DNA from: Armatimonadota bacterium
GTDB taxonomy: Bacteria > Sysuimicrobiota > Sysuimicrobiia > Sysuimicrobiales > Humicultoraceae
NCBI GenBank assembly: GCA_037443365.1
Contig: JBBIOM010000007.1
Span: 19,303 to 83,302, forward strand
Length of the DNA: 64,000 bases
Direction: 5' to 3'
The notes under the pieces were generated by a model. That model was given only the letters and a program-made list of their open reading frames with translations. It was not told the origin of the DNA and did not search any database. Of this stretch, positions 6,949 through 63,637 are shown in pieces; the stretch's first letter is position 1, and each line of letters opens with the position of its first letter. The position numbers and the translations under genes were made by a program.

Positions 6949-7025
6949 CGGGGCGTAGCGCAGCTTGGCAGCGCGTCTGGTTTGGGACCAGAAGGTCGGC
7001 GGTTCGAGTCCGCCCGCCCCGACCA
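6949..7025 (+). tRNA. tRNA-Pro (anticodon TGG)
   Basis: It folds by hand as a 77-nt cloverleaf: acceptor CGGGGCG/CGCCCCG, D arm GCGC..GCGC, anticodon stem TCTGG/CCAGA with loop TTTGGGA, T arm GGCGG-TTCGAGT-CCGCC, discriminator A and an encoded CCA. Confidence 0.93.
6981..7025 (+). repeat. attL-like copy of a 45-bp direct repeat (the 3' part of tRNA-Pro)
   Basis: TTTGGGACCAGAAGGTCGGCGGTTCGAGTCCGCCCGCCCCGACCA recurs at 8448-8492 with a single mismatch (44/45). Confidence 0.8.
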
Positions 7026-17776: not shown

Positions 17777-17852
17777 GCGCCTGTAGCTCAGCGGATAGAG
17801 CGGCTGCCTTCTAAGCAGCGGGCCGGGGGTTCGAGTCCCTCCAGGCGCGCCA
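17777..17852 (+). tRNA. tRNA-Arg (anticodon TCT)
   Basis: A 76-nt cloverleaf: acceptor GCGCCTG/CAGGCGC, D arm GCTC-AGCGGATA-GAGC, anticodon stem GCTGC/GCAGC with loop CTTCTAA, T arm GGGGG-TTCGAGT-CCCTC and an encoded CCA. A TGcTATACT extended -10-like element lies at 17755-17763. Confidence 0.92.
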
Positions 17853-29039: not shown

Positions 29040-29118
29040 GGTGGCCGTAGCTCAGCCTGGTTAGAGCGCCTGGCTGTGGCCCAGGAGGGCGCGGGTTCGA
29101 ATCCCGTCGGTCACCCCA
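29040..29118 (+). tRNA. tRNA-His (anticodon GTG)
   Basis: The cloverleaf has the His-specific extra 5' G(-1) opposite discriminator C. Acceptor GTGGCCG/CGGTCAC, anticodon stem CCTGG/CCAGG with loop CTGTGGC, T arm GCGGG-TTCGAAT-CCCGT and an encoded CCA. Confidence 0.92.
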
Positions 29119-44705: not shown

Positions 44706-46361
44706 GTGCGCGGAACGCGCGCATGCCTGCTGGAGCCGGAGATGAGAAGCGAGGGCAGGGTGGAATGGTGGCCCCTTCACGTGCGCGCGCTGATCGCGCT
44801 CTTCGGCCTTTCCGTTGTCCTTGTCGGCGTGCCTGCCGGGACCACGGTCAAGTCGCCGCTCACCCTGGCAGCGCTGCTTGTATTGCTGGTCGCCGCGGGC
44901 CTGCCCGGCGCCCTGACGCCTGCCCGTACCGGCGAGTTCCCCCTGGCCCGGCACAGCGGGGTGGCGCTGGAGCTGCTCATTGTGTCCTTCATCGTGTTCG
45001 AGACCGGCGGCGCCACCAGCTTCTTCTACTTCCTGTACGTGCCGGCGCTGATGCTGGCCACGCCTGGGCGCGGGATCGCCATGGGCGCGGTAACTGGCGC
45101 GGCATCCGCGGTCGGCTACGCTGTCGCAGCGGCCGCGCAGGGGGCAGTCGGGACGGTTGTGCTCCCGCGCGCGGCGCTCCTGATCCTGGCCGGGGTTCTG
45201 CTCGGGCTGATCGAGGAACGCCGGCGCGCGAGCGCCGCGCCGCTCGCCCGGGGCTACGAGATGCTTGCGCGCGAGGTCAACGCGGCCGCCGAGCAGCGCG
45301 CGGCCCTGGCGTCAATGGCGCCGCTGGATCTGGCCGGGCGCGCCAGGCAGTTCCTCGAGCGGGCGCTCCGCCTGGCGGATGCGCAGTGGGGCCTTGTGGC
45401 CATGCTGGATGACGACGGGCGTCCGGTCGTGGAAGCCCGCACCGGAACCGATGGGAGGCCCCGGCCCGCAGGCGTTTCCCTCGCGTTGGGCGGTGCGCTG
45501 GCCACCGCGCTCAGGTCAGGCGCTTCCCAGATGGTTCTGGACGCGGACAAGGACGCGGACTGGGTCAGCGTCTTCGGCGAGGATCCCGCGCGCTGCGCGG
45601 TCGTGATCCCGCTCTCGGCGCAGGGCGTACCGTTCGGCGCCCTCGTCCTGGCGCGCGATGGGCCCGGGCCGCTCTCCGACGAGCAGATGGCGGCCGCGCG
45701 AGCCCTGACCGAGATGACGGCCCCCCTGCTGAGGGACGCCCGGGCAGTGGCGCAGTCCAGCGAGTTCCTGCTGAACACGGTGAAGGCGCTGGCCGCGGCC
45801 CTGGAGGCCAAGGACCCCTACACGCTCGGCCACTCGCAGCGCGTTGCGACCTGCGCCGTCGCGATCGCCTCCGACCTGGGGCTTCCCGCGGACGAGATAG
45901 ACCGCATCCGCTGGGCGAGTCTCCTGCACGATATCGGGAAGATCGCGATCCCGGAGCACGTCCTGCGCAAACGCGGCCCCCTGAGCGATGAGGAGCGGGC
46001 GCTGATGAACCAGCACCCGGAGCGCGGGGCCAGCATCATGCGCGACGTGACGCTGTTCAGGCCGCTCGCCGACGACATCCGCTCCCACCAGGAGGCCTAC
46101 GACGGGAGCGGATACCCGGACGGCCTTGTCGGAAACGAGATTCCACTGGGCGCGCGCATCATCCGCGTCGGCGATACCTTTGACGCGGTGACCTCAAACC
46201 GCTCCTACCGGCCGGGCCGTACTGTGGAGCAGGCGATGGCCGAACTCAGCCGAGAGGCCGGTACCACGCTCGATCCGGCGCTGGTGGACGTGTTCCTCCG
46301 CATTCTGCGAGAGAAGCCGCCCTTTGAGATCCAGCTCCGGTTGTGGAGGGAGCGGTCGTAG
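44706..46361 (+). CDS. Membrane-anchored GAF plus HD-GYP domain protein (c-di-GMP phosphodiesterase type)
   Basis: It has N-terminal hydrophobic segments and a central GAF-like region. The HD-GYP region reads HSQRVATCAVAIASDLGL...LLHDIGKIAIPEHVLRKRGPLSDEERALMNQHPERG...HQEAYDGSGYPDGL. The start is uncertain: 44706 or ATG 44742. Confidence 0.88.
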   Translation: MRGTRACLLEPEMRSEGRVEWWPLHVRALIALFGLSVVLVGVPAGTTVKSPLTLAALLVLLVAAGLPGALTPARTGEFPLARHSGVALELLIVSFIVFETGGATSFFYFLYVPALMLATPGRGIAMGAVTGAASAVGYAVAAAAQGAVGTVVLPRAALLILAGVLLGLIEERRRASAAPLARGYEMLAREVNAAAEQRAALASMAPLDLAGRARQFLERALRLADAQWGLVAMLDDDGRPVVEARTGTDGRPRPAGVSLALGGALATALRSGASQMVLDADKDADWVSVFGEDPARCAVVIPLSAQGVPFGALVLARDGPGPLSDEQMAAARALTEMTAPLLRDARAVAQSSEFLLNTVKALAAALEAKDPYTLGHSQRVATCAVAIASDLGLPADEIDRIRWASLLHDIGKIAIPEHVLRKRGPLSDEERALMNQHPERGASIMRDVTLFRPLADDIRSHQEAYDGSGYPDGLVGNEIPLGARIIRVGDTFDAVTSNRSYRPGRTVEQAMAELSREAGTTLDPALVDVFLRILREKPPFEIQLRLWRERS

Positions 46362-46368
46362 CAGGGAC

Positions 46369-47385
46369 TCAGAAGTCGCCGGCCGAGGCGGTAGCGACCG
46401 TCGTGTTGCCCCCGGCACAGGCGCGCACAAGGGCTTCCTCCGCCCGCTCTATGAGCCCCTGGGCGCTCTCGGCGTCCCGGGGGTAGCACGCCAGTCCTAT
46501 GCTGACGGTGGGCGTCAGCGGGTACGGATGCCCGGGGGGGACGAACACCGTGCTCTCGACGGACCTACGGATGCGCTCCGCCAGCGCGAACGCTCCCTCG
46601 AGCGATGTCTCGGGCAGGACCAGCCCAAACCTGCCCGAACCCAGAGAGGCGCGGAGATCAACGAGCCGCGTCTCGGCCGTCAGTACTCCGGAGATGTGCA
46701 CGGCTATGGCCGTGGATGCCTCGCTCCCCAGGGTGCCGCTGATCTCCTCTTCCTGGTCAACCGCGAGCAGGGCCAGGGCGAAGGTGCGCCCGAACCGCTG
46801 GCTCCTGGCCAGTTCGCGCGCGGCGGCAGTCGCGAAGAAGGTCGCGTTGAACAGGCCGGTCTGCGCATCAACGATTATCTGCCTCCGCGCGCGCTCGCGC
46901 AGCTCGTCGAGCCGGCTCTGCTCGGTCAGCCCCCTGCGCGCGCGCTGCCGCTCGTGCCGCTGGATGACCTCGAGGACACCGGCCGATATCAGGCGGTTCA
47001 AGAAATGGACTGCCTCGGCATCCTGGTCGCCGGGGGGCACGGCTCCGGCCAGGAAGTCGAGCACGGCCGGCTTTACGTCCAGGAGGGCCCGGATCACCTC
47101 TTCCAGCGGCGTGTCCAGGGCGAAGGCCTCACCGCTGAGCCTGCCCGCGAACTCAACGAAGGACGACACCTGCCCGGTGCTTGCCGCCTCGGCGAGCGCG
47201 TCCAGCCCGGCCTGGGCATGCCGCTCCAGCCGCTCGTGGTCCTTCCACACCTGCCCACGAGCGGGAGTGAGGGCCATGGCGCGGGCCCAGTGCGTCGCCA
47301 GCATCCGGCGTCGCGTGCGTATGAGCTCAAGGGTGGAGGGGTTCATCGCGGCATCTTGTAGACCTGTTACTATGGCCGAGCGCAA
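46369..47385 (-). CDS. Degenerate GGDEF-domain protein with retained RxxD I-site (candidate c-di-GMP receptor)
   Basis: The C-terminal GGDEF fold reads DAQTGLFNATFF...LLAVDQEEE...TRLVDLRASLGSGRFGLVLPET...TVSIGLA...AEEALVRA. The signature GG(D/E)EF is replaced by GSGRF, while RLVD sits exactly 5 residues upstream. The N-terminal roughly 165 aa form a helical domain of unknown type. The start codon is uncertain. Confidence 0.82.
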   Translation of the reverse strand: MRSAIVTGLQDAAMNPSTLELIRTRRRMLATHWARAMALTPARGQVWKDHERLERHAQAGLDALAEAASTGQVSSFVEFAGRLSGEAFALDTPLEEVIRALLDVKPAVLDFLAGAVPPGDQDAEAVHFLNRLISAGVLEVIQRHERQRARRGLTEQSRLDELRERARRQIIVDAQTGLFNATFFATAAARELARSQRFGRTFALALLAVDQEEEISGTLGSEASTAIAVHISGVLTAETRLVDLRASLGSGRFGLVLPETSLEGAFALAERIRRSVESTVFVPPGHPYPLTPTVSIGLACYPRDAESAQGLIERAEEALVRACAGGNTTVATASAGDF

Positions 47386-47807: not shown

Positions 47808-48787
47808 AGCGCGCCCTGATCCTCGCGGCTGCCTGGATCGCCGCGGTCGGGCTCATGCAAGGAGCCGCATACGGCGCCGGGCCTGCCTCCGACCCGCTGC
47901 GCGTCGGCGCGGCGCTGTTTGCGCGGGGCGACCTCGCGGGCGCCGAGGCCGCCTTCGTGCGCGCGGTGGGGCGGCATCCCGGTTCGGCCCACGCGTGGCT
48001 TTGGCTCGGCGTCGTGCAGTTCCACGCGGGCGCCACGGAGCGCTGCGAACAGTCGCTCGCCCGGGCCGCCCGGCTCTCACCGCGCAATGGGATGGTGCTG
48101 CTCTGGTGGGGTCATGCGCTGGTCTTGGTGGGGCGCCCGGTCGAGGCCGCGACCGCCTTTCGGCACGCCGCGATCACCCAGGCGCCCGATGCCGTGCGTG
48201 ATCTGGCCCGTCAGGCGCTGCGGGCGTTGGGGCCGCTCCCACAGCCTGCCGGTCATCCTGCTCCTGACGGCGCGCGATCTCCGACCGCGCCGTCCTGGGT
48301 GACGGATGTTGCCAGCTACGGCGCCATCGCCCGCTTCTACAACTCCGGCCTTACGCACGGGCAGACGGCCGCGATCGGTCAAGCCCTGCTCGGCTACAGC
48401 AGGCACTTCAACGTGGATCCCCGGCTGGTGGTTGCGCTCGTGGTGGTCGAGTCGGGATTCCAGCCGGCGGCGCGCTCCCGGGCGGGCGCGATCGGGCTGG
48501 GACAGCTCATGCCGGACACCGCCCGCGCGATGGGAGTGGACGCTACCGACCCTGTGCAGAATCTCTACGGCACCATCCGGTACCTCCGCGGCAACCTGGA
48601 CCGGTTCGGATGGGACAGGGCGCACCTGGCGCTGGCCGCCTACAACGCGGGCAAAGGCGCCGTGCTGAGGCACAACGGAATCCCTCCGTACGCCGAGACG
48701 CAGTGGTACGTGGCGAACGTGTCCGGACTCTACCGGCGGCTTCTGCAGATTCCCGGTGGGAGTGGGGAGCTATCCGGGCGTCTCTAG
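47804..48787 (+). CDS. Secreted TPR plus SLT-domain lytic transglycosylase
   Basis: ATG 47804 overlaps the Roadblock stop (ATGA). It has a signal peptide, a TPR-like region, and an SLT catalytic region: [27 protein letters not shown]...[10 protein letters not shown]...ALAAYNAG. Confidence 0.85.
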
Positions 48788-48840
48788 GTAAGTTAGGGGG
48801 GGACTAGGCAGAGCCAAGAGCGGGAAAGAAGCAGGTTGCA

Positions 48841-48938
48841 GGCAACCCTCGAACAGGCAAACCCGCCGCGAGGCGGGGACGCAAAGCCAACGGGGCCTGG
48901 AGGCCCGAGTCCGCGGGCTCCGGGCCGGCCGGGTTGCC
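48841..48938 (+). promoter_or_regulatory. c-di-GMP-I (GEMM-I) riboswitch-like aptamer, copy A
   Basis: GGCAACCC-tcgaaca-GGCAAACC-CGCC-GCGA-GGCG-GGGACGCAAAGCC-aaCGGGGCC-tgga-GGCCCG...GCCGGGTTGCC. It has the two conserved GEMM-I cores, a GNRA-capped hairpin between them and an outer 8-bp helix (48841-48848 with 48931-48938). An SD-like AAGGGGAG follows 2 nt later. Confidence 0.78.
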
Positions 48939-49674
48939 GAAGGGGAGACGCTTGGAATCCCTTCGTGTCCAGAGCTTTGAGGCGATTGGGGCTGGGGCGA
49001 TCGTCTTCGCGGGTTTGTGCGGAGACGAGGTGGACCTGGAGCGGCTTGTGGCGCACCTGGCCGCGCGCGGCTTTGACGGCGGCGTGCTCGTGGGCGATGA
49101 GGCGACCGAGGGAGTGCTCTGGTTCCGGGACGGCGCGCCGCGCGAGGCATGGGTGTTCGAGGCGGGCGACATCCCGGAGATGCTGCCCGATGGCCCTGGT
49201 CGCGAGCGCCTGAGTGCACTGGCCTCGCGAGGCTGCCGGATCAGCGTCGTGGCGTGCGAGCCGCCTGACGAGCCGCCGGAACTGGCGGACTGGTCCGACG
49301 CACAGCCCCCCGAGTACGGGACGGCCGCTGAGCCGCCTGCCCACCCGTGGCCCGCGATCCTCGAACGCATGGCGGTGCGCATCGCGCGCAGCCGCGGGCC
49401 CCGCCTGGCGAGCCATTTCGCGGCGGCCCTGGTCAGGGCGCTGGAGCGTCACGGCGGCGGCATGGACGGCGAGCGCGTGCACGCCCCGCAACTGCCCGAG
49501 TCGACTTGGCGCGCGATAGTGGAGGTGGCATGCGCGCCGATAGTGACGATCGCCGGGCGCGCCTTCGCCGACCGGACCATAGCAGCCTGCGAACGCGACG
49601 TGCGCGATGCCGAAGGGATGCCAGAAGCGGTGGCCGAAGGCGAGGGGCCGGCCGAAGGCGAGGGGCCGGCATGA
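48934..49674 (+). CDS. Hypothetical protein (no recognisable family; DUF4388-like flavour in the N-terminal part)
   Basis: 246-aa ORF. TTG 48934 lies inside the riboswitch outer helix, so in-frame TTG 48952, downstream of AAGGGGAG, may be the real start. It reads LERLVAHLAARGFDGGVLVGDEATEGVLWFRDGAPREAWV, and the C-terminus carries a duplicated EGEGPA. Confidence 0.55.
   Translation: MPKGRRLESLRVQSFEAIGAGAIVFAGLCGDEVDLERLVAHLAARGFDGGVLVGDEATEGVLWFRDGAPREAWVFEAGDIPEMLPDGPGRERLSALASRGCRISVVACEPPDEPPELADWSDAQPPEYGTAAEPPAHPWPAILERMAVRIARSRGPRLASHFAAALVRALERHGGGMDGERVHAPQLPESTWRAIVEVACAPIVTIAGRAFADRTIAACERDVRDAEGMPEAVAEGEGPAEGEGPA
49633..49668 (+). repeat. Perfect 2 x 18-bp tandem duplication inside the CDS
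   Basis: GCCGAAGGCGAGGGGCCG occurs twice in a row, encoding AEGEGP AEGEGP at the C-terminus of the 48934 gene. Confidence 0.9.
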
Positions 49675-50423
49675 GGCCGCCCCCCTGGCTGCCCAAGGCG
49701 GTCATCGGCCTCATGGCAGGGGCGGCCGGCATCACCTACGGCCTGGACGGCGGCGGCGCTCACGTGCAGGCGGCGCGGGCCGCGGTCGGGTCAACGCTGC
49801 AACTCCTGGCGCCGCTCGTGGCCGGGTTCGGGTGCCTGATGGCGGCTGCGGCCTATGCGCGTGGTGACCGCGAGCGCGCGGTGTGGGTGATCGCGGCGTG
49901 GGCCACGCTGGCCTGGGCCGCCGGGCGTGCCATCTCCGCGGCCGGACGGTGGGGCGGGGGCGGCGCGGCGTACTCCCCGTCGGCGGCCGACGCGTTCTAT
50001 GTCGCCTTCTTCGTGCTGCTCAGTGCCGCCGTTTGGATGGAGGCCCGGCTTGTCTGGCCCGTGCTGGAACCGCGGATCCGCAGGAATCTGGTCGTGTACG
50101 GCGGTCTGATATGGGGGTCTGTGGTTGTCGCGACGCTGGCATTGCTCGCGCGCGGCGAGGCCCCGGTCTTCCAGAAGATGCTGGCCGCCTTCTACCCTGC
50201 GGCCGCGATGCTGCTCGTACCTGCCTGCCTGGTTCCTGCCGCCGGCTTCAGTGGAGGCACCTCCGCCTACACGTGGCTCACCCTGGCGATGGCTGCGTTG
50301 TGCATGGCCGGGGCGAGTCTCCTGCATCCGATCGTGCACAGGGCCGACGCGCTGTGGGTGGCGGGCTTCATCTTCCTGGCGGCCGGTGCCTTCTGGCAGC
50401 GCGCCGCGCTGGAGGAGGTCTAG
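49671..50423 (+). CDS. Polytopic integral membrane protein, unknown family
   Basis: ATG 49671 overlaps the upstream stop (ATGA). It is about 250 aa with roughly 6-7 hydrophobic segments and has no soluble domain. Confidence 0.6.
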   Translation: MRPPPWLPKAVIGLMAGAAGITYGLDGGGAHVQAARAAVGSTLQLLAPLVAGFGCLMAAAAYARGDRERAVWVIAAWATLAWAAGRAISAAGRWGGGGAAYSPSAADAFYVAFFVLLSAAVWMEARLVWPVLEPRIRRNLVVYGGLIWGSVVVATLALLARGEAPVFQKMLAAFYPAAAMLLVPACLVPAAGFSGGTSAYTWLTLAMAALCMAGASLLHPIVHRADALWVAGFIFLAAGAFWQRAALEEV

Positions 50424-50428
50424 CTGCC

Positions 50429-51169
50429 GTGGCCGCCGCTGGTGTGGCCGGTCTGCTGCACTACGGGTGGACACGGGGCTTTGCCGCCGTGGTCGAGGCG
50501 CCTGCCCGGCGAACCGCGGCGGTCTTCGGTCCTGCTGGCTGGGTGCAGGGCGATCCCTCGTCCGTCCTGCCCGCCGGCGCACCGCCTGGCGCAGAGGTGG
50601 TGCGCCTGGCGCTCACCGAGCGGCTGGCCGATCAGATAGCCGGCCTGCAGTTCTCCATTGGCGGTCTGCACACCGAGTTCGTGCGGCTGCGCTCCTTGTT
50701 GGGACGGCTGTGCGCGCAGGGCGCCGACAGCGTGGTGCTCGTCCTCGGCGAGAGGCCCGCGGTCTTCGCGGTGGCAGACGGCGAGATCACCTCGGCCGGG
50801 CTGGATGCGACACCCCCCGAGGAAGCCCGAGGATGGATCGTGGTCTTCTCCGGCAAGGTCAGCCTGCCCGCGGCCGAGGCCCCGGGTGCTGCCGATGAGA
50901 CCTACTTCGTTCCCAGCAACAGCCGGGACTCACTGCCCGAGGAGGTGGCGACCGCCATCCTGAAGGTGGCCGGGCCCGCGGGCGAACGCGTGCCCGGTCT
51001 GCTCGACGGCACGCGCACGATTGGGGTGGTCGCAGGCATGGCCGGGCTGAGCGCCGGACAGGCGCGCGCAGCCGTGGGCGTGCTGGTCGCGCACCGGCTG
51101 GCCTTCAGGTGCGTCAGCCGCCCCAAGGCCGGCTCGCGTACGAAGCAGGGCAGTTCAGCGCAACCCTGA
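50429..51169 (+). CDS. Hypothetical protein, unknown family
   Basis: GTG 50429 lies 10 nt after GGAGGAGG. It reads LRSLLGRLCAQGADSVVLVLGERPAVFAVADGEITSAG, similar in pattern to the 48934 product. The C-terminal part LLDGTRTIGVVAGMAGLSAGQARAAVGVLVAHRL looks winged-helix-like. Confidence 0.5.
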   Translation: MAAAGVAGLLHYGWTRGFAAVVEAPARRTAAVFGPAGWVQGDPSSVLPAGAPPGAEVVRLALTERLADQIAGLQFSIGGLHTEFVRLRSLLGRLCAQGADSVVLVLGERPAVFAVADGEITSAGLDATPPEEARGWIVVFSGKVSLPAAEAPGAADETYFVPSNSRDSLPEEVATAILKVAGPAGERVPGLLDGTRTIGVVAGMAGLSAGQARAAVGVLVAHRLAFRCVSRPKAGSRTKQGSSAQP

Positions 51170-51250: not shown

Positions 51251-51336
51251 AACCCCGAAAAGGGCAAACCCATCGTGAGGTGGGGGCGCAAAGCCTCGGG
51301 ACCAGCAGGTGTGGTCAGCCGGGCTGCCGGAGGTTG
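51251..51336 (+). promoter_or_regulatory. c-di-GMP-I (GEMM-I) riboswitch-like aptamer, copy B
   Basis: aaccccgaaaaGGGCAAACC-CATC-GTGA-GGTG-GGGGCGCAAAGCC-tCGGGACC...CAGCCGGGCTGCCGGAGGTT. The architecture matches copy A, with one deviation in the second core (GGGGCGC instead of GGGACGC). A hairpin follows (51344-51351 with 51362-51369, containing CCUCCC) that could act as a weak terminator or as an anti-SD against AGGAGG at 51381-51386. Confidence 0.68.
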
Positions 51337-51394: not shown

Positions 51395-52210
51395 ATGGCG
51401 GCAAGACCGCCGCAACGCCAGGCAGTGGTGCCGGAGCCCCGCGGCGCAGAGGCCTCCGGCCCCGACGACGCCGACCTGGCGCTTGAGGAATACGCCGCCA
51501 CGCGCAGCCCGCAGGCGCAGGAGCGCGTCGTCGCCGCCTGCACGCCACTGGTGCGGCGCATCGCCGCCGAGTTCGCGTACTCGGGAGTCCCGACCGAGGA
51601 TCTGATCCAGGTGGGCTACATCGGGCTGCTCAACGCCATCAACGGGTTCGACGCGGGCCGCGGCGCGAAGTTCGCCACCTACGCCGGCTACCTCGTACGC
51701 GGCGAGATCCGTCACTACCTGCGCGACCAGCGGGACACGATCCGCAGACCGCGCTGGTTTCAGAGGCTCAACACCCGCATCGAGGAGACCATCAGCGCGC
51801 ACGTCAGCGAGACCGGGCGCTTCCCCGGTCTCGACGTCCTGGCGCGCGCTCTCAACGTGGAGGAGGAGGGGCTCCTGGAGGTCCTGCGCGCAAGGGAGAT
51901 CCTTCGCACGGTCTCCATCGAGGCCGACGACGATGGGGCCGACCTCCGCGTTGATCGCGACCGGATACGGCACCGCACGCACGTCAGCTTCCAGCTTCCG
52001 ATCGAGGACCGCGTCACGCTGATGGAGGCGCTGGAGTCGCTCACCGCGCTGCAGCGCAAGGTCGTTTACTACCTTTTCTACACCGACCTTACACAGATGG
52101 AGGCCGCCAAACAGATCGGCATCTCGCAGAAGCACGTGTCGCGCGTGCTTGCCGCCGCGCTGAACAAGCTGCGCGGCGCGCTGGGCGCGCCGTCGCACGG
52201 GGCTCTGTAG
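51395..52210 (+). CDS. Group-3 sigma-70 family factor (SigB/SigF/SigG-like)
   Basis: Region 2 reads DLIQVGYIGLLNAINGFDAGRGAKFATYAGYLVRGEIRHYLRD. Region 4 reads LQRKVVYYLFYTDLTQMEAAKQIGISQKHVSRVLAAALNKLR. AGGAGG lies 9 nt upstream of the ATG. Confidence 0.9.
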   Translation: MAARPPQRQAVVPEPRGAEASGPDDADLALEEYAATRSPQAQERVVAACTPLVRRIAAEFAYSGVPTEDLIQVGYIGLLNAINGFDAGRGAKFATYAGYLVRGEIRHYLRDQRDTIRRPRWFQRLNTRIEETISAHVSETGRFPGLDVLARALNVEEEGLLEVLRAREILRTVSIEADDDGADLRVDRDRIRHRTHVSFQLPIEDRVTLMEALESLTALQRKVVYYLFYTDLTQMEAAKQIGISQKHVSRVLAAALNKLRGALGAPSHGAL

Positions 52211-52229: not shown

Positions 52230-52586
52230 ATGTCGCAGTTGAAGGACTTGCTCGCCGAACTGACCAGGGTTGACGGCGTGGTGGCGGCCATGATCGTGGG
52301 CCGTGACGGGTTCGTCGTGGAGGGCCTGACGACGGAGGAGCGGGTGGACCTCGAGGCGGTCGGCGCGGTCGTGGCCAGCAACATAGCGGTGGCCGACTCG
52401 ATGGGCAAGGAGATGGGCCGCGGCTCGCTGCGCACGATGCTGCTGGAGTACGACGAGGGCCCGGTGGCCGTCGGGCCGGCCGGGGCCGACGCCGTCATCG
52501 TCGTGGTGGGTACGCGGCTGGCCAACCTGGGGCGCGTCCGCCTCGAGATGCGGCGCAACAGCCAACTCGCGGCCGCGCTGGTCTAG
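52230..52586 (+). CDS. Roadblock/LC7 (MglB-like) domain protein
   Basis: 118 aa. It reads LAELTRVDGVVAAMIVGRDGFVVEGL...LRTMLLEYDEGPVAVGPAGADAVIVVVGTRLANLGRVRLEM and begins 19 nt after the sigma gene. Confidence 0.85.
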   Translation: MSQLKDLLAELTRVDGVVAAMIVGRDGFVVEGLTTEERVDLEAVGAVVASNIAVADSMGKEMGRGSLRTMLLEYDEGPVAVGPAGADAVIVVVGTRLANLGRVRLEMRRNSQLAAALV

Positions 52587-52681
52587 ATGGTCCCGGCCCC
52601 GCCTGCTTCCCGCAATGTTCCCGGGACTAGCCCGGAACCCTTCGGGGAACATACCCACCGCAGAATCATCTCTGGAGGAGC

Positions 52682-53125
52682 ATGACGATGCGGCGTCAGT
52701 CGCGGCCCGGCCGAGCCAGGGGCGAGGCAGGGTTCACATACCTTGAGTTGCTCGTTGCCCTCTCGCTCTTCGCCGCGTTCTCGGTGATCCTTCTCCAGAC
52801 ATTCATCGTCGGCATGGCGCATGCCGGCCGGGCCAACGACCGCGCGGCCGCCACTACCCTCGCCGTTCAGGTGATGGAGCAGATCCGCGCCAGCGTTAAC
52901 CCGGTGGAGATGGTGGGCTTCACGGACCTTGCGCGCTCGCCGCTCCCCCTGCCGGATCCCTACACCGGCGTGACCAACCCGACCCCCCACACGTTCCAGG
53001 TGGCCGTGGACGTCACCCACGATACGAACCTGCGCCTCACCACCGCCACCGTCCAGATCTACAGGCCCGCCGATCTGAACGGCGCGCCGTTTGTCACGCT
53101 CACGACGGTGCTGGATGACAAGTGA
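52682..53125 (+). CDS. Prepilin-type N-terminal cleavage/methylation domain protein (pilin or PilV/GspI-like minor pilin)
   Basis: A charged leader is followed by G|FTYLELLVALSLFAAFSVILL (Glu at +5). The protein is 147 aa. Confidence 0.8.
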   Translation: MTMRRQSRPGRARGEAGFTYLELLVALSLFAAFSVILLQTFIVGMAHAGRANDRAAATTLAVQVMEQIRASVNPVEMVGFTDLARSPLPLPDPYTGVTNPTPHTFQVAVDVTHDTNLRLTTATVQIYRPADLNGAPFVTLTTVLDDK

Positions 53126-56251: not shown

Positions 56252-58460
<2,209 letters not shown>

Positions 58461-58465
<5 letters not shown>

Positions 58466-58540
58466 CCCAGCCAGCCGGGGGCTTCCACCACCGGCCCTGT
58501 GGCTTTGCGTCCCCGGATCGCTCCGGGTTTGCCCTTACGG
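58461..58540 (-). promoter_or_regulatory. c-di-GMP-I (GEMM-I) riboswitch-like aptamer, copy C
   Basis: The minus strand reads ccgtaaGGGCAAACC-CGGA-GCGA-TCCG-GGGACGCAAAGCC-aCAGGGCCGG...GGCTGGGTTGCC. The 3' conserved GGGTTGCC (58468-58461) overlaps the first candidate start codon (TTG 58465) of the TPR-PilB gene. Confidence 0.76.
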
Positions 58541-58658
58541 GACTAGTGCACTAAACTTCTGGGTATACTCTAACTTGCCCCTGCAGAGATTGCACCGAGG
58601 GTATCACGGAGCGCGGCTTGGCGCAAGGCCATATTGAGAGGAGTTCCGGGGAGGAATC

Positions 58659-60236
58659 ATGGAGACTTACCAGATGGAGACGCGCCTGCTCTCCGGCCTC
58701 ATCCGAGACCGGCACCTGCTCACGCTGGCGGTCAACGAGGGGTTCCACGTCGACCAGCTCGTATCGCCGCAGGCGCGGCGCCTGGCGAAGGTCACCATTG
58801 ACGCGCACGCGATGACGCCGATCCTCGACGAGGCCACGCTGCGGGCCGAGATGACCGATCGCGGTCTCCTGACCCCTGAGATGGAGCAGTACCTGGCGTC
58901 GGTGCTGCTGCTCCCGCCGCCCAACGCCGGGGACCTTCTTGGCTACGTTGAGGAGCTGAAGGCCCGGGAGAGCCGCGACCTCCTGGCGCGCGTCCACGAA
59001 TCCATCGGGGGCTATCTATACCGCCGTACCCCAGAGCAGGCGGACATCGTGCAGTTCACCACCGACGCGATCCATAATCTGCTCGAGATCCAGCGGCGCA
59101 GGACGCGCCGCCAGGTGGCGCCCATCTCCGAGACGTTCGGCCCGATGATTGACGCCCGGCCCCAGGCGACGAACGGCATCCTGGGCTTCTCGATCAGCCC
59201 GTTTGACCGTCTCAACACCCTGCTCTCGGGTTTGCGGCGGGGCTTCTACTACGGCCTGGCCGGTGCTCCCCGCCGCGGCAAGACCAACTTCGCCCTCGAC
59301 CTGGCCGTGCACGTGGCCGCCAACCACAAGGTGCCGGTGCTGTTCTACACCTGGGAGCAGACCCGCCGCGTGCTGGCGGCCCGCCTGATCGCCAAGGAGG
59401 TGGGCATCAACCCCACCTCGATCCTGGTGGGGAGCAACGGGGACGGCGAGTCCGTGGCCGAGAAGGTGAACGAGGCCCGCGGGCCGCTGGGGCGCTACGC
59501 GCCGTTCCTGTACCTGGTGGAGGCGGGCCGCAAGGAGACGCTCGACCGCATCCGCGCCCACGCCCACAACCTGATGCAGGAGTTCCAGACCACGGACGTG
59601 GTGCTGTTCTTCGACTACCTGCAGAAGATCCCGCTGTCGGCCTACGTGGACGACTGGAAGGCCCGGACCGACATGGTCTCCACCGCGCTGGCCGAGCTGA
59701 GCCTCGAGCTCAACTGCCCGGTCTTCGCGATCTCGCCCCTGGACAAGGAGGGCTGCCGGCTGGACGAGCGGCCGGCCGAGGAGACCGAGATCTTCAACCC
59801 GTTCAACCGGCCCACGATGCACCACAGCATGGGCAGCGGCGATCTCGAGTACGACCTCGACGTCGCCATGGTCCTGGCCAAGGACTGGAAGGCCACGGCC
59901 GACCTGCGGCAGTTGATCGAGTCGCGGGCCAAGGCCGAGGGCTTCGACACCAGCGATCTGCCCAGGGTGGACATCCTCAACCTGTTCGTGGACAAGAACC
60001 GCGACGCGCCAGAGGCGGCCTCCAACATAGTGCAGTACGCGTTCTTCGTGACCCTGAACAAGCTGGTGGAACTGGACTACAAGATGGAGCAGGAGTATCG
60101 CCCCGACTACCAGGGCTTCTCCAAACTCCAGGAGATCTACACGTTCCTGCGCGACCACGGGTTCCGCCCGCAGCGCGAGGCGCCCGCCGCCGCGCGCGTC
60201 GGAGGCGTGGGGGGAGCCGGAGGGAGAAGCCGATGA
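58659..60236 (+). CDS. Diverged DnaB-like protein (DnaB-type N-terminal domain plus RecA-fold ATPase)
   Basis: The N-terminus METRLLSGLIRDRHLLTLAVNEGFHVDQLVSPQARRLAKVTID resembles the DnaB N-domain. Walker A is GLAGAPRRGKTNFALDLA (59262-59285). The Walker B/DnaB box is VVLFFDYLQKI, and it also has PVFAISPL and GSGDLEYDLDVAMVL. A strong SD (GGGGAGGAA) precedes the ATG. Confidence 0.72.
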   Translation: METYQMETRLLSGLIRDRHLLTLAVNEGFHVDQLVSPQARRLAKVTIDAHAMTPILDEATLRAEMTDRGLLTPEMEQYLASVLLLPPPNAGDLLGYVEELKARESRDLLARVHESIGGYLYRRTPEQADIVQFTTDAIHNLLEIQRRRTRRQVAPISETFGPMIDARPQATNGILGFSISPFDRLNTLLSGLRRGFYYGLAGAPRRGKTNFALDLAVHVAANHKVPVLFYTWEQTRRVLAARLIAKEVGINPTSILVGSNGDGESVAEKVNEARGPLGRYAPFLYLVEAGRKETLDRIRAHAHNLMQEFQTTDVVLFFDYLQKIPLSAYVDDWKARTDMVSTALAELSLELNCPVFAISPLDKEGCRLDERPAEETEIFNPFNRPTMHHSMGSGDLEYDLDVAMVLAKDWKATADLRQLIESRAKAEGFDTSDLPRVDILNLFVDKNRDAPEAASNIVQYAFFVTLNKLVELDYKMEQEYRPDYQGFSKLQEIYTFLRDHGFRPQREAPAAARVGGVGGAGGRSR

Positions 60237-60511: not shown

Positions 60512-60750
60512 AGGTGGAGCTGGACCGCGAGCAGGTCGTGATCTTCACGCCGTCACACAGGATCGAGGGCGAGCTGCACCTGCCCTCGAGCGCCCGGCTC
60601 TCCGACCGGCTGAACCAGGCCAAGGACTTCCTGGCCATTACCTCGGCGCGCGTCTTCACCCTGGACGACCGTCCGCTCTACGAGGCCGGCGTCGTGTTTC
60701 TGCACAAGTCCTACATCGTGATGCTTATGGAGCGTCATGAGGCCATCTAG
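60508..60750 (+). CDS. 80-aa hypothetical protein, unknown family
   Basis: It reads MKVELDREQVVIFTPSHRIEGELHLPSSARLSDRLNQAKDFLAITSARVFTLDDRPLYEAGVVFLHKSYIVMLMERHEAI. It has an ATGA overlap with merR-like and a 14-nt overlap with pilB. The pattern looks beta-rich. Confidence 0.5.
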   Translation: MKVELDREQVVIFTPSHRIEGELHLPSSARLSDRLNQAKDFLAITSARVFTLDDRPLYEAGVVFLHKSYIVMLMERHEAI

Positions 60751-62446
60751 GAGCCCGACCTCGCGTCGCCGGGTGCGGCTCGGCGAGATCCTGGTGGAGG
60801 CCGGGCTGATCACGAGCGCCCAGCTCGAGAAGGCGCTGTCGGCACAGAACGCCAGCGGCGACCGCCTGGGCAGGGTGCTGGTGAGCCAGGGGCTGACCAC
60901 GCAGGAGGCCATCAGCAAGGCCGTGGCCAGCCAGATGGGAATCGAGTACGTCAACGTGCAGTCCGTAGGGATCCCCGAGGAGGTGCTCACGGCCGTTCCC
61001 GAGTGGCTGATACGGCGCCACCAGGTCATCCCGCTGCGCAGGGAAGGGAACACGCTCGTCGTGGGGATGGTGGACCCCCTCGACGTGGTGGCGCTCGATA
61101 CGGTCCGGCGCGTCGCCAAGCTCGACCTGGTACCGGCCGCGATCACGCCCGAGGGGTTCCAGCACGCCGTCAACCAGTACCCGGCCCTGGAGGGCACCCT
61201 GGACCAGGTCATCCAGGAGATCCGCCCCGCGGACGTGGGCGAGGAGGAGCCGGGCCTCGATCGGCTGCGCGAGATAGTCGAGGACGCCCCGGTCGTGCGC
61301 CTGGTGAACCTGATGCTGGTTCAGGCGGTGCGCCAGGGCGCCAGCGATGTGCACGTGGAGCCGCAGGAGGACCGCGTTCGCATACGCTACCGCATTGACG
61401 GCACGCTCTACGGCGTCATGACCGCGCCCAAGCACGTGCAGGCCGCGACCACGAGCCGCATCAAGATCATGGCCAACATGAACATCGCCGAGCGCCGCGC
61501 GCCGCAGGACGGGCGGATCGAACTGCGCGTGGACAACCGCGAGATTGACCTGCGCGTCAGCAGCGTCCCCACCGTGTTCGGCGAGAAGGTGGTCATGCGG
61601 ATCCTCGACAAGCGGGCGGCGCTGGTCGGCGTGGACAGGCTCGGCCTGTTGGGGCCGGACCTGCCGCGATTCGAGTCGCTGATCGCCAAGCCTTACGGCA
61701 TCATCCTCATCACCGGCCCGACCGGCAGCGGCAAGACCACCAGCCTGTACGCCATCCTCAACCGGCTGAACAAGACCGACGTCAACATAATCACGGTCGA
61801 GGACCCGGTGGAGTACCAGCTCGCCGGCATCAGCCAGGTCCAGATCAACCCCAAGGCCGGTCTGACCTTCGCCACCGGTTTGCGGTCTTTCCTGAGGCAG
61901 GACCCGGATATTATCATGGTGGGGGAGATACGCGACGAGGAGACCGCGCGCATCGCGATCCACGCCGCGCTGACCGGGCACTTGGTCCTCTCGACGCTGC
62001 ACACCAACGACGCGCCCGGCGCCGTGGCTCGCCTCGCGGACATGGGCGTGGAGCCGTTCCTGGTCTCCTCTTCGGTGATCGGCGTGGTCGCGCAGCGCCT
62101 GGTGCGCGTGCTCTGCCCGCAGTGCCGCGAGGCGTACACGCCTCCGGTCGAGGTGCTGGAGCGCTACCGGCTCATAGGCCCCGGCGACCCGCCGCCCGTG
62201 ATCTACCGTCCGCGGGGCTGCGACCGGTGCAACCACATCGGATACAAGGGGCGCATCGGGCTCTTCGAGATCATGGTCATGGACGATGAAGTGCGCGCGC
62301 TCGTCGTGCGGGAGTCCTCGGCGGATGTGCTCAAGGCCGCCGCCGTCGCCGCCGGGATGCGCACGCTGCACCTGGACGGCGTGGCCAAGGTGCTGGCCGG
62401 GACGACGTCGCTCGAAGAACTGCTCCGAGTCGTTTTCGTCGAATAG
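60737..62446 (+). CDS. pilB: Type IV pilus assembly ATPase PilB (GspE family) with intact MshEN-type motifs
   Basis: It has tandem RLGEILVEAGLITSAQLEKALSAQ and RLGRVLVSQGLTTQEAISKAVASQ, a T2SSE_N region and ILITGPTGSGKTTSL (Walker A). It also has FLRQDPDIIMVGEIRD and a tetracysteine motif (CPQCR...CDRCNHIGY). Confidence 0.93.
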   Translation: MRPSRSPTSRRRVRLGEILVEAGLITSAQLEKALSAQNASGDRLGRVLVSQGLTTQEAISKAVASQMGIEYVNVQSVGIPEEVLTAVPEWLIRRHQVIPLRREGNTLVVGMVDPLDVVALDTVRRVAKLDLVPAAITPEGFQHAVNQYPALEGTLDQVIQEIRPADVGEEEPGLDRLREIVEDAPVVRLVNLMLVQAVRQGASDVHVEPQEDRVRIRYRIDGTLYGVMTAPKHVQAATTSRIKIMANMNIAERRAPQDGRIELRVDNREIDLRVSSVPTVFGEKVVMRILDKRAALVGVDRLGLLGPDLPRFESLIAKPYGIILITGPTGSGKTTSLYAILNRLNKTDVNIITVEDPVEYQLAGISQVQINPKAGLTFATGLRSFLRQDPDIIMVGEIRDEETARIAIHAALTGHLVLSTLHTNDAPGAVARLADMGVEPFLVSSSVIGVVAQRLVRVLCPQCREAYTPPVEVLERYRLIGPGDPPPVIYRPRGCDRCNHIGYKGRIGLFEIMVMDDEVRALVVRESSADVLKAAAVAAGMRTLHLDGVAKVLAGTTSLEELLRVVFVE

Positions 62447-62455
62447 GGGGCTGCC

Positions 62456-63637
62456 ATGCACATCGAAGACCTGCTGCGAGAGGTCGTCGCGGCCCAGGCG
62501 TCGGACCTGCACCTGACGAGTGGGATCAAGCCCACGATGCGGCTTTGGGGCCGGCTGACGCCGATGGAGCACCACGAGGTCCTCTCGGCCGAGGACACCT
62601 TCCAGCTCGGCTACAGCATGCTCAACACCTTCCAGAAGCAGAAGTTCGAGAAGTTCTGGGAACTCGATCTTTCCTACGGCGTGCCCGGGCTGGGACGCTT
62701 CCGGGTGAACATCTACCGCCAGCGCGGGGCGCTGGGGATCGCGCTCCGGGTCATCCCCATGTCGATCCCGACGCTCGAGGCGCTCAACCTGCCCACCGTC
62801 CTGAGGGAACTCACGCGCAAGCCCCGGGGGCTGGTGCTGGTGACCGGGCCCACCGGACAGGGCAAGAGCACGACGCTGGCCTCGATGATAAGCTTCATCA
62901 ACTACGAGCGCAGCGCCCACATCGTGACGGTGGAGGACCCGATCGAGTACCTGCACCAGCACGGCAAGAGCATCATCAACCAGCGCGAGCTGGGGTTCGA
63001 CACGCAGTCGTTCCCGGCGGCGCTGCGCGCGGTGCTGCGCGAGGACCCCAACGTCGTGCTGATCGGCGAGATGCGCGACCTCGAGACGATCTCGGCGGCG
63101 CTCACGATCGCCGAGACCGGCCACCTGGTCTTCGCCACCCTGCACACGGCCAACGCCGCGCAGTCGATAGACCGCATCATTGACGTCTTTCCGCCCTACC
63201 AGCAGCAGCAGATCCGCATCCAGATCTCCATGGTGCTCGAGGCCGTGGTGTCGCAGCAACTGCTCCCCAACGCGAAGTACAAGGGGAATGCTGACGCACA
63301 GCCGGCGGCGCGCAAGCGCCTGGGGGGCGCCGTCGGGCAGTCCTGGCCGAGCCTGGACGAGATAGGGCGGGTGCCCGCGGTCGAGATCATGCTGGCCACG
63401 CCCGCCATCCGCAACCTGGTACGCGAGGCCAAGACGCACCAGATCGAGACGGCAATACAGACGGGCGGGCAGTACGGCATGCAGACGATGGACCAATCGC
63501 TGCGCGATCTCGTCCTGCGCAAGATGGTGAGGTTGGACGACGCGCTCAGCCGGGCCATCCGCCCCGATGAACTGCGCAAGATACTGTACGAGGCCGGCGT
63601 TGACGTCGAGCGCGCCGCTCGTAGCGCGAGGGGGTAG
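62456..63637 (+). CDS. pilT: Twitching-motility retraction ATPase PilT (with an internal insertion)
   Basis: It has ASDLHLTSGIKPTMRLWG, GLVLVTGPTGQGKSTTL, VLREDPNVVLIGEMRD, GHLVFATLHT and AIRNLVRE. It is 393 aa, with about 26 extra residues between QQLLP and GRVPAVEIM. Confidence 0.92.
   Translation: MHIEDLLREVVAAQASDLHLTSGIKPTMRLWGRLTPMEHHEVLSAEDTFQLGYSMLNTFQKQKFEKFWELDLSYGVPGLGRFRVNIYRQRGALGIALRVIPMSIPTLEALNLPTVLRELTRKPRGLVLVTGPTGQGKSTTLASMISFINYERSAHIVTVEDPIEYLHQHGKSIINQRELGFDTQSFPAALRAVLREDPNVVLIGEMRDLETISAALTIAETGHLVFATLHTANAAQSIDRIIDVFPPYQQQQIRIQISMVLEAVVSQQLLPNAKYKGNADAQPAARKRLGGAVGQSWPSLDEIGRVPAVEIMLATPAIRNLVREAKTHQIETAIQTGGQYGMQTMDQSLRDLVLRKMVRLDDALSRAIRPDELRKILYEAGVDVERAARSARG

Follow-up and report, generated by a model that had tools for sequence, protein, structure and literature searches.

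Does a riboswitch still control its genes when the hairpin through which it would act in its relatives has been deleted? The question is raised by a leader in a metagenome-assembled genome (MAG) of an Armatimonadota bacterium. The stretch analyzed, called the window below, consists of 64,000 nucleotides of the GenBank assembly GCA_037443365.1 (contig JBBIOM010000007.1, positions 19,303 to 83,302 of the forward strand). In it, an aptamer for cyclic di-GMP (c-di-GMP), referred to as aptamer A, stands between a lytic transglycosylase (SLT) gene and three genes, g1, g2 and g3. The best explanation of the locus, to which a probability of about 0.6 was assigned, is that aptamer A is a genuine c-di-GMP-I aptamer, that its ancestor was a terminator-based OFF switch and that the control remaining in this genome acts on translation. 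The larger part of this figure belongs to a translational OFF switch and the smaller part to some other residual control, and the figure covers identity and ancestry as well. The unusual feature of an otherwise ordinary switch is the loss of the terminator, by which the sensor has come to lie directly against the ribosome-binding site of gene 1.

Identity, conservation and fold of the aptamer

The whole 64-kb window was searched on both strands against 4227 families (cmscan, Rfam 15). The c-di-GMP-I model, RF01051, matched positions 48846-48941 of the plus strand with 51.1 bits, above its gathering score of 35 (E = 4.7e-7), and all conserved core blocks of the model were matched in the alignment. 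A preliminary description, made from the letters alone, had placed a GEMM-I-like aptamer before an unannotated three-gene operon and had made this proposal depend on the RF01051 gathering score. The proposal is borne out by the match, by the orthologs and by the gene calls. Its motifs were all found at the places given (Table 1), as were the Shine-Dalgarno-like (SD-like) sequence AAGGGGAG and TTG codons at 48934 and 48952, and its figure of 146 nt for the gap from the SLT stop codon to 48934 is correct. An assembly artefact can be dismissed, as the leader recurs in a second, independent NCBI assembly, GCA_964615245.1, with 4 mismatches over 6816 nt.

Relatives of the locus were collected by means of g1. 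In a collection of 5.8 billion proteins, 30 belong to the g1 family; all of them are proteins without a name, and the labelled ones are from Armatimonadota MAGs. When 1.84 billion representatives were searched exhaustively with a profile, only 52 matches were obtained. Genome and metagenome scans yielded 25 related loci, in which the order is conserved: GAF-HD protein, SLT protein, aptamer A, g1-g2-g3, a second aptamer (B), sigma factor, Roadblock protein, and pilins with PilB. Wherever a locus was long enough to include aptamers A and B, Rfam models found both in essentially all cases. Aptamer A ends 10 nt 5' of TTG 48952 on the same strand, and the same placement was seen in 17 orthologous loci. 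As judged from this synteny, aptamer A is the ortholog of a leader riboswitch kept in an Armatimonadota lineage between the lytic transglycosylase gene and an operon ending in g1-g2-g3.

The bases equivalent to the ligand contacts of the Vibrio cholerae aptamer Vc2 were assigned by alignment to the Rfam models. In Vc2, one guanine of c-di-GMP is contacted by G20, and its second guanine forms a Watson-Crick pair with C92 (PMC6140456; PMC11218506). The G20 equivalent, G48856, is G in 16 of 17 orthologs, and the equivalents of A47 (A48883) and C92 (C48937) are invariant in all 17. The loop of the P2 hairpin is GCGA in the window and GCGA, GCAA, GUAA or GUGA across the orthologs, that is, GYRA in 17 of 17. 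Type I aptamers have a GRRA loop with a receptor, and type II aptamers have a GYRA loop and no tetraloop receptor (PMC11218506); the GYRA loop in all orthologs thus places aptamer A in the type II subclass.

The possibility was considered that aptamer A has an altered specificity, either sensing another cyclic dinucleotide such as 3'3'-cGAMP, as GEMM-Ib RNAs do, or belonging to the c-di-GMP-I-GGC variant (RF03167). When permissive filters were used, RF03167 was indeed the best model of the clan on the same stretch, with 51.8 bits, and the adjacent aptamers B and C exceed the gathering score of that model. However, the score of aptamer A is below this gathering score of 59, and the position after ACGC, where the RF03167 consensus has G, is A in aptamers A, B and C. 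The name GGC was read here as G20/G47/C92 from the model consensus, since a literature search gave incidental mentions alone. Membership in the GGC variant was rejected on both the score and the base. Membership in GEMM-Ib was also rejected: position 20 is G in c-di-GMP sensors and A in the cGAMP-sensing GEMM-Ib RNAs (PMC6140456), and the equivalent base is G in aptamer A. An altered ligand is considered very improbable. With canonical G, A and C at the contacts and the G of RF03167 absent, the element is by its sequence a canonical class I c-di-GMP riboswitch aptamer of the GYRA-loop type II subclass, predicted to bind c-di-GMP.

A single ortholog, L008:3151-3246, has A for G at the G20 equivalent (GAACGAGCAAACC), which is the mark of cGAMP-sensing or bispecific GEMM-Ib RNAs.

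To evaluate the fold, 17 distinct orthologs of aptamer A were aligned, and explicit structures were scored on the alignment against shuffled and slid controls. The Rfam-type fold, designated M1, paired 90.5% of the cells and had 9 compensatory pairs with 41 such cells. Neither its paired percentage nor its covariation score was reached by any of 500 shuffles, and slid controls gave 34-50%. The fold check proposed in the preliminary description was thereby answered, the Rfam-type fold being backed by covariation over the 17 orthologs. Pairing in the P2 hairpin was complete, and covariation was seen there as a change of G-C to A-U at column pair 27/36. P3 is about 20 bp long, with both-side changes in 8 of 19 pairs and 90.4% of cells paired; window-specific changes in its distal part improve the pairing. 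P1 reads CCUCCG/CGAAGG in the orthologs, and both strands are nearly invariant, so that its support comes from conservation and the family architecture and not from covariation. Plain minimum free energy (MFE) folding of the region yields a structure other than the aptamer (z = -2.1), as is expected for a GC-rich RNA with tertiary and ligand stabilisation.

Two helices of the preliminary description were not sustained. It had closed the element with an outer helix, R1, of GGCAACCC with GGGTTGCC. These strands are perfectly complementary, but the real P1 lies elsewhere (Table 1). R1 was rejected as P1: it is not conserved, it shows no covariation, and its 3' strand, which is invariant, belongs to P3 and P1. 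A perfect helix of 8 bp is formed in the window only; the orthologs can form the inner 5 pairs, and the outer 3 are window-specific. Because R1 is present in the unconstrained MFE fold, it could be an alternative conformer of the ligand-free RNA. The second hairpin, GGGGCC-UGGA-GGCCC, is not a separate element, its bases being the 5' side of the long P3. As a local hairpin it was rejected, since it paired 72.6% of cells across the orthologs, equal to the 71.2% of shuffled controls. Of the two proposed start codons, TTG 48934 lies within the invariant GGGUUGCC core, and the homologs of g1 begin with M-E-T-L-R at the column of TTG 48952, which is taken as the start.

On every point of RF01051 membership that a sequence can test, namely identity, fold, conservation and position, aptamer A was found to agree with the family.

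The missing terminator and what may remain of the switch

In 15 of the 16 orthologs from outside the window, a terminator-like hairpin with a GC-rich stem of 10-14 bp and a U-rich tract lies directly 3' of the aptamer. For L012, an independent consensus scan called a 12-bp stem followed by TTTTTGCTTC. Over the 15 sequences, none of the 10 pairs of the stem is ever broken and one pair is fully compensatory, while the loops range from 3 to about 30 nt. The 5' arm of the hairpin, CCUUUCGGC, and the aptamer tail, GCCGAAGGG, are complementary (92.9% pairable as opposed to 33-63% when slid). Both strands of this pairing are invariant, which puts it beyond the reach of a covariation test. When folds were ended before the 3' arm, the helix between tail and arm appeared in the unconstrained MFE structure of most orthologs. 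When the aptamer was enforced in such co-transcriptional truncations, the 5' arm was left free.

A conserved terminator whose 5' arm pairs with the aptamer tail implies that the switch of the relatives is a transcriptional OFF switch. In the absence of ligand, the tail would pair with the 5' arm as an antiterminator. With c-di-GMP bound, P1 would keep the tail, and the hairpin and its U-tract would be expected to terminate transcription.

The window differs from this arrangement. Its closest relatives (70-75% protein identity) align with it collinearly as far as GCCGAAGGGGAG and once more from the start-codon region onward; in between, pairwise alignments with L001, L005, L013 and L014 have one gap of about 66 nt. 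In L001, the segment that is missing from the window is flanked on both sides by GGGGAG, the signature of a microhomology deletion, and it comprises exactly the terminator. No terminator-like site was found on the plus strand in 48700-49100. As read from these alignments, a deletion of about 66 nt between two GGGGAG repeats removed the terminator in this genome. The terminator is present in both close and distant clades, so the state of the window is derived by parsimony; the deletion is common to near-identical genomes only.

The one ortholog without the terminator hairpin is L019, in which an ATG lies 11 nt past the aptamer (GCCGAGGGGAAGCGTACATG). Since L019 is likewise devoid of the hairpin and has its start codon so close, the fused layout of aptamer and start codon, as far as the sequences indicate, probably arose twice. 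In L019:1222-1325 (Ga0187893_10006106), the aptamer tail is joined to the ATG of a PBP lipoprotein gene.

In the window, the TTG start follows 4 nt after the Shine-Dalgarno sequence, which is overlapped by the 3' strand of P1. With the terminator removed and P1 lying on the Shine-Dalgarno sequence, any remaining control must act on translation. Translational control had been suggested in the preliminary description; it is a reasonable inference for this genome because the terminator is absent, but it does not extend to the orthologs, which use the terminator instead. A working switch here would act on translation initiation. In its most likely form it would retain the sign of its ancestor, OFF: P1, stabilised by the ligand, would cover the 5' half of the ribosome-binding site. 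This form falls somewhat short of an even chance. Residual control of some other kind is unlikely.

The main rival is that aptamer A has been orphaned: it would fold and bind c-di-GMP without any effect on g1-g3, which would now be constitutive or controlled by their promoter only. The loss of the terminator kept by nearly all orthologs is consistent with this, as is the restriction of the deletion to near-identical genomes, which could make it recent. Moreover, folding models gave no robust state-dependent change in the accessibility of the Shine-Dalgarno sequence or start codon. However, the aptamer shows no decay, its score being within the range of the orthologs (41.8-57.7 bits), its contact bases all intact and the distal changes in P3 improving the pairing. 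The 3' strand of P1 also lies physically on the Shine-Dalgarno sequence, and L019, of a different lineage, has the same fused layout. Orphaning is regarded as somewhat less probable than the translational OFF switch.

A switch of inverted sign, translational ON, was also considered. In the ligand-free RNA, R1 and a hairpin of the tail CGAAGGGG (48938-45) with UCCCUUCG would bury the Shine-Dalgarno sequence, and c-di-GMP would expose GGAG. The unconstrained MFE structure of 48836-48990 (-76.0 kcal/mol) is exactly this fold, with a probability of being unpaired of 0.05-0.2 over GGGG. In the aptamer-enforced ensemble, GGAG is freed to 0.9-1.0 when the 5' end is set at 48836; enforcing the aptamer costs about 9 kcal/mol over 48836-48990. 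The outer pairs of R1 and the complement in the coding sequence are both window-specific. Against the model, the duplex of tail and coding sequence (-13.4 kcal/mol) was not significantly better than shuffles (-9.8 +/- 2.2 kcal/mol, p = 0.064), and the complement was rejected on this value as a selected anti-Shine-Dalgarno sequence. Furthermore, the start codon becomes paired instead in the aptamer-enforced ensemble at 48836, and with 5' ends at 48841 or 48846 the effect is gone. Neither helix has comparative support. An ON switch is accordingly an improbable reading of these models.

Several observations weigh against the best explanation given at the outset. The difference in accessibility of the Shine-Dalgarno sequence and start codon between ligand-free and aptamer-enforced ensembles holds for the 5' end at 48836 only, the two states being nearly identical for the others, and folding of L019 gave no clear pattern. 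For both the window and L019, the regulatory sign predicted by thermodynamics varies with the 5' end that is assumed and is thus indecisive. Of the Shine-Dalgarno sequence, P1 covers AAGG only, and GGAG stays free. The U-tract of the close clade, GUUUGUGUC, is weak for an intrinsic terminator. P1 and the antiterminator both lie in invariant sequence, where covariation can test neither. An intact aptamer is no proof of continued selection, because the deletion could be recent. Finally, the PATAN assignment of g1, described below, comes from profile comparisons at 65-91% probability without a direct Pfam match.

A more far-reaching scenario can be put forward as a doubtful one. In it, what had been an OFF switch with a terminator became a functional switch of translation through a single 66-nt microhomology deletion; the purine-rich tail, GAAGGGGAG, took on the role of Shine-Dalgarno sequence; R1 and the hairpin of tail and coding sequence may invert the sign to ON; and the switch controls an unrecognised PATAN-like pilus module. 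If true, this would be a natural, datable case of the turnover of an expression platform on a fixed aptamer, with the same layout a second time in L019, and the controlled module would be a PATAN-like, membrane-anchored accessory of type IV pili. Whatever the outcome, the orthologous leaders, between which presence or absence of the terminator comes down to one deletion, offer a natural comparison for a change in the level of control.

The downstream genes and their neighbourhood

The window has 69% GC, and genes were called by GC at the third codon position (GC3 frame plot). The start of gene 2 overlaps the stop of gene 1 (ATGA). None of g1-g3 had a Pfam or NCBIfam match, profile searches against PDB sequences found nothing, and Pfam PF14332 (PATAN/DUF4388) matched none of 29 members of the g1 family at E <= 1. 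The AlphaFold2 model of g1 (predicted local distance difference test, pLDDT, 83.5) comprises an alpha/beta N-domain (residues 1-101) that is joined by a disordered Pro-rich linker to a C-domain of four helices. Distant profile matches of g1 covered the N-domain only and lay within larger proteins, 6 of 10 of which, when scanned, contained DUF4388. With hhalign, g1 aligned at 91% probability (E = 1.3e-6) with a repeat adjoining DUF4388 in protein P0077 and at 65% probability (E = 6e-5) with a Pfam-annotated DUF4388 copy in P0074.

In Synechocystis, regulators with a PATAN domain bind PilB, the motor of the type IV pilus (bioRxiv 10.1101/2021.06.11.447907; PMC11181946). Given the PATAN-like domain of g1, a type that binds PilB motors in cyanobacteria, and given the gene neighbourhood, g1-g3 are probably accessories of the type IV pilus system. 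The 16 homologs of g3 had no Pfam domain (0 of 16), and its AlphaFold2 model (pLDDT 76) gave no meaningful Foldseek match in the PDB. Comparison of g1 with the neighbouring Roadblock protein showed no similarity, and comparison with g3 gave a weak local match only. This rare, unannotated module of PATAN-like, membrane and orphan proteins, which is consistently preceded by a c-di-GMP riboswitch, is a candidate regulator of the pilus motor.

In distant relatives, two extra genes stand between aptamer A and g1, encoding a Peripla_BP_6 (LivK-like) lipoprotein and an NMT1_3/TAXI-type solute-binding protein; the clade of the window has neither. A matching permease is not evident, and the products may for this reason be sensory rather than transport proteins.

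The GAF-HD and GGDEF genes lie immediately upstream of the SLT gene, 2-4 kb upstream of aptamer A, and likely encode enzymes of c-di-GMP degradation and synthesis. Behind aptamer B, up to 51395, come a hairpin (CCUCCC...GGGAGG) with a U-rich tail and the Shine-Dalgarno sequence AGGAGG. For aptamer C, the first in-frame start codon outside the aptamer is GTG 58450, 7 nt away, the same fused layout as that of aptamer A. The gene behind it encodes a PilB-like ATPase with a c-di-GMP-binding domain, which suggests control by c-di-GMP of the RNA as well as of the protein. Judging by the domains, ligand synthesis, degradation and protein receptors would all be encoded within about 20 kb.

Aptamers B (51290) and C (58506) have A after ACGC, though they score above the RF03167 gathering score. 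By the bases of the binding site they look like canonical c-di-GMP-I aptamers, and their clan assignment may reflect overall similarity of lineage, not a variant site.

In many orthologs, aptamer A is preceded at a distance of 15-60 nt by a conserved block, GGACTAG-N14-GGGAA(N)AT, of fixed spacing, which is kept in the window, L001, L006, L012, L013 and L015. A similar CTAG-N13-15-GGGAA occurs at 52607-52649, upstream of the pseudopilin gene at 52682. The block could serve the adjacent SigB/F-type sigma factor as a promoter, with a -10 element resembling GGGnAT. Enrichment of CTAG-N14-GGGAA across the window was weak and not significant (3 matches, 0.58 expected), and a sigma-70 promoter scan found nothing. 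Three tRNA genes (RF00005, 66-70 bits) at 6949-7022, 17777-17849 and 29041-29115 on the plus strand are unrelated to the locus.

Table 1. Features of the aptamer A leader, the adjoining genes and the related loci (window positions unless a locus is named).
Feature	Position	Strand	Remarks
GAF + HD_5 (HD-GYP-type) protein	44706-46361	+	gene syntenic in relatives
GGDEF-domain protein	46369-47385	-	convergent with GAF-HD gene
TPR + SLT lytic transglycosylase	ends 48787		upstream of aptamer A
Upstream block GGACTAG-N14-GGGAAAGA	48801-48829	+	candidate promoter or operator
R1 5' strand GGCAACCC	48841-48848	+	pairs with 48931-48938; in unconstrained MFE fold; ligand-free conformer or chance
c-di-GMP-I aptamer including P1 (aptamer A)	48846-48943	+	RF01051 match; fold M1 in 17 orthologs
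P1 5' strand CCCUCG	48846-48851	+	pairs with 48938-48943; 5/6 pairs, one C.A mismatch
G, Vc2 G20 equivalent	48856	+	just 5' of the G-C/C-G pairs 48857-58/48881-82
Motif GGCAAACC	48857-48864	+	from preliminary description; present
P2 hairpin GC-AAA-CCCGCC-[GCGA]-GGCGGG-GAC-GC	48857-48882	+	100% of cells paired, 17 orthologs; pairs 48857-58/48881-82 and stem CCCGCC/GGCGGG 48862-67/48872-77; loop GCGA 48868-71
Hairpin CGCC-GCGA-GGCG	48864-48875	+	from preliminary description; present; part of stem CCCGCC/GGCGGG
Motif GGGACGCAAAGCC	48876-48888	+	from preliminary description; present
A, Vc2 A47 equivalent	48883	+	first A after ACGC
P3, one long irregular stem	48885-48935	+	48885-48907 with 48914-48935; loop AGUCCG 48908-13
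GGGGCC-TGGA-GGCCC	48892-48906	+	from preliminary description; present
Motif GCCGGGTTGCCG	48928-48939	+	from preliminary description; present
C, Vc2 C92 equivalent	48937	+	within the 2 unpaired bases GC between P3 and P1
P1 3' strand CGAAGG	48938-48943	+	overlaps 5' half of Shine-Dalgarno sequence; read from sequence
Shine-Dalgarno-like AAGGGGAG	48940-48947	+	deletion junction at 3' edge, 48947/48948
Gene 1 (g1), 240 aa, TTG start	48952-49674	+	PATAN/DUF4388-like N-domain, Pro-rich linker, helical C-domain
UCCCUUCG, gene 1 codons 3-5	48958-48965	+	complementary to tail CGAAGGGG; lead only
Gene 2 (g2), 250 aa, polytopic membrane protein	49671-50423	+	at least 5 hydrophobic spans; syntenic in all loci
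Gene 3 (g3), 246 aa, orphan protein, GTG start	50429-51169	+	GGAGGAGG upstream of start
Aptamer B	51254-51332	+	RF03167, 70 bits; in all related loci
SigB/F/G-type sigma factor	51395-52210	+	downstream of aptamer B
MglB-like Roadblock protein	52230-52586	+	followed by pseudopilin genes
PilB-like ATPase, TPR region + MshEN c-di-GMP-binding domain	56252-58450	-	downstream of aptamer C
Aptamer C	58457-58542	-	RF03167, 59.3 bits
DnaB_C/AAA_25-domain protein (KaiC/RadA-like?)	58659-60236
PilB-type ATPase with MshEN domain	60737-62446	+
PilT-like ATPase	62456-63637	+
Aptamer tail GCCGAAGG	L001/L012 leaders		putative antiterminator strand
Loci with two extra genes	L003, L004, L006-L009, L011, L012, L015, L017, L019		e.g. 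L012:3864-5999

Comparison with known systems

Identification of the element is routine, and an Rfam pipeline would annotate it. It is already known that class I switches end the transcription of motility operons and that c-di-GMP riboswitches occur in type IV pilus loci (PMC11477304, PMC11218506). A full-text literature search gave no paper combining Armatimonadetes, c-di-GMP and riboswitch. The interest of the region, from a little-studied phylum, lies in its dense c-di-GMP regulon: within about 20 kb, a type IV pilus cluster is surrounded by three class I riboswitches, by genes of the GGDEF and HD-GYP types and by PilB ATPases of the MshEN type.

Aptamer A is like Vc2 and the RF01051 family in the order of its conserved blocks, its three-helix architecture and the equivalents of the G20, A47 and C92 contacts; the preliminary description had likened its block order to that of Vc2, and the order is the same. 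Aptamer A differs from Vc2 in that its P2 has a GCGA loop (type II), with neither the GAAA tetraloop nor the receptor found in Vc2 (PMC11218506), that P3 is extended to about 20 bp and that the host is an Armatimonadota MAG. RF03167 and GEMM-Ib belong to the same clan and share the overall fold, but aptamer A departs from them at the diagnostic positions, with A after ACGC and G at the G20 equivalent.

The class I switch of the Clostridioides difficile flgB operon consists of an aptamer and a terminator and turns OFF a motility operon that includes a sigma factor gene (PMC11477304). Its mechanism is that inferred for the orthologs of aptamer A, and aptamer B likewise stands before a sigma factor gene. 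In contrast, the copy in the window has no terminator, and its genes are associated with a pilus locus, not with flagella. Control by c-di-GMP at the level of a riboswitch in a type IV pilus locus is known from the class II switch of C. difficile (PMC11477304), although that switch has a c-di-GMP-II aptamer and is an ON switch. The class I switch Bc1 of Bacillus thuringiensis joins transcriptional control with trapping of the ribosome-binding site and start codon (PMC11218506). The Bc1 platform, however, measures 220 nt and has two terminators, whereas the platform in the window has shrunk to about 10 nt.

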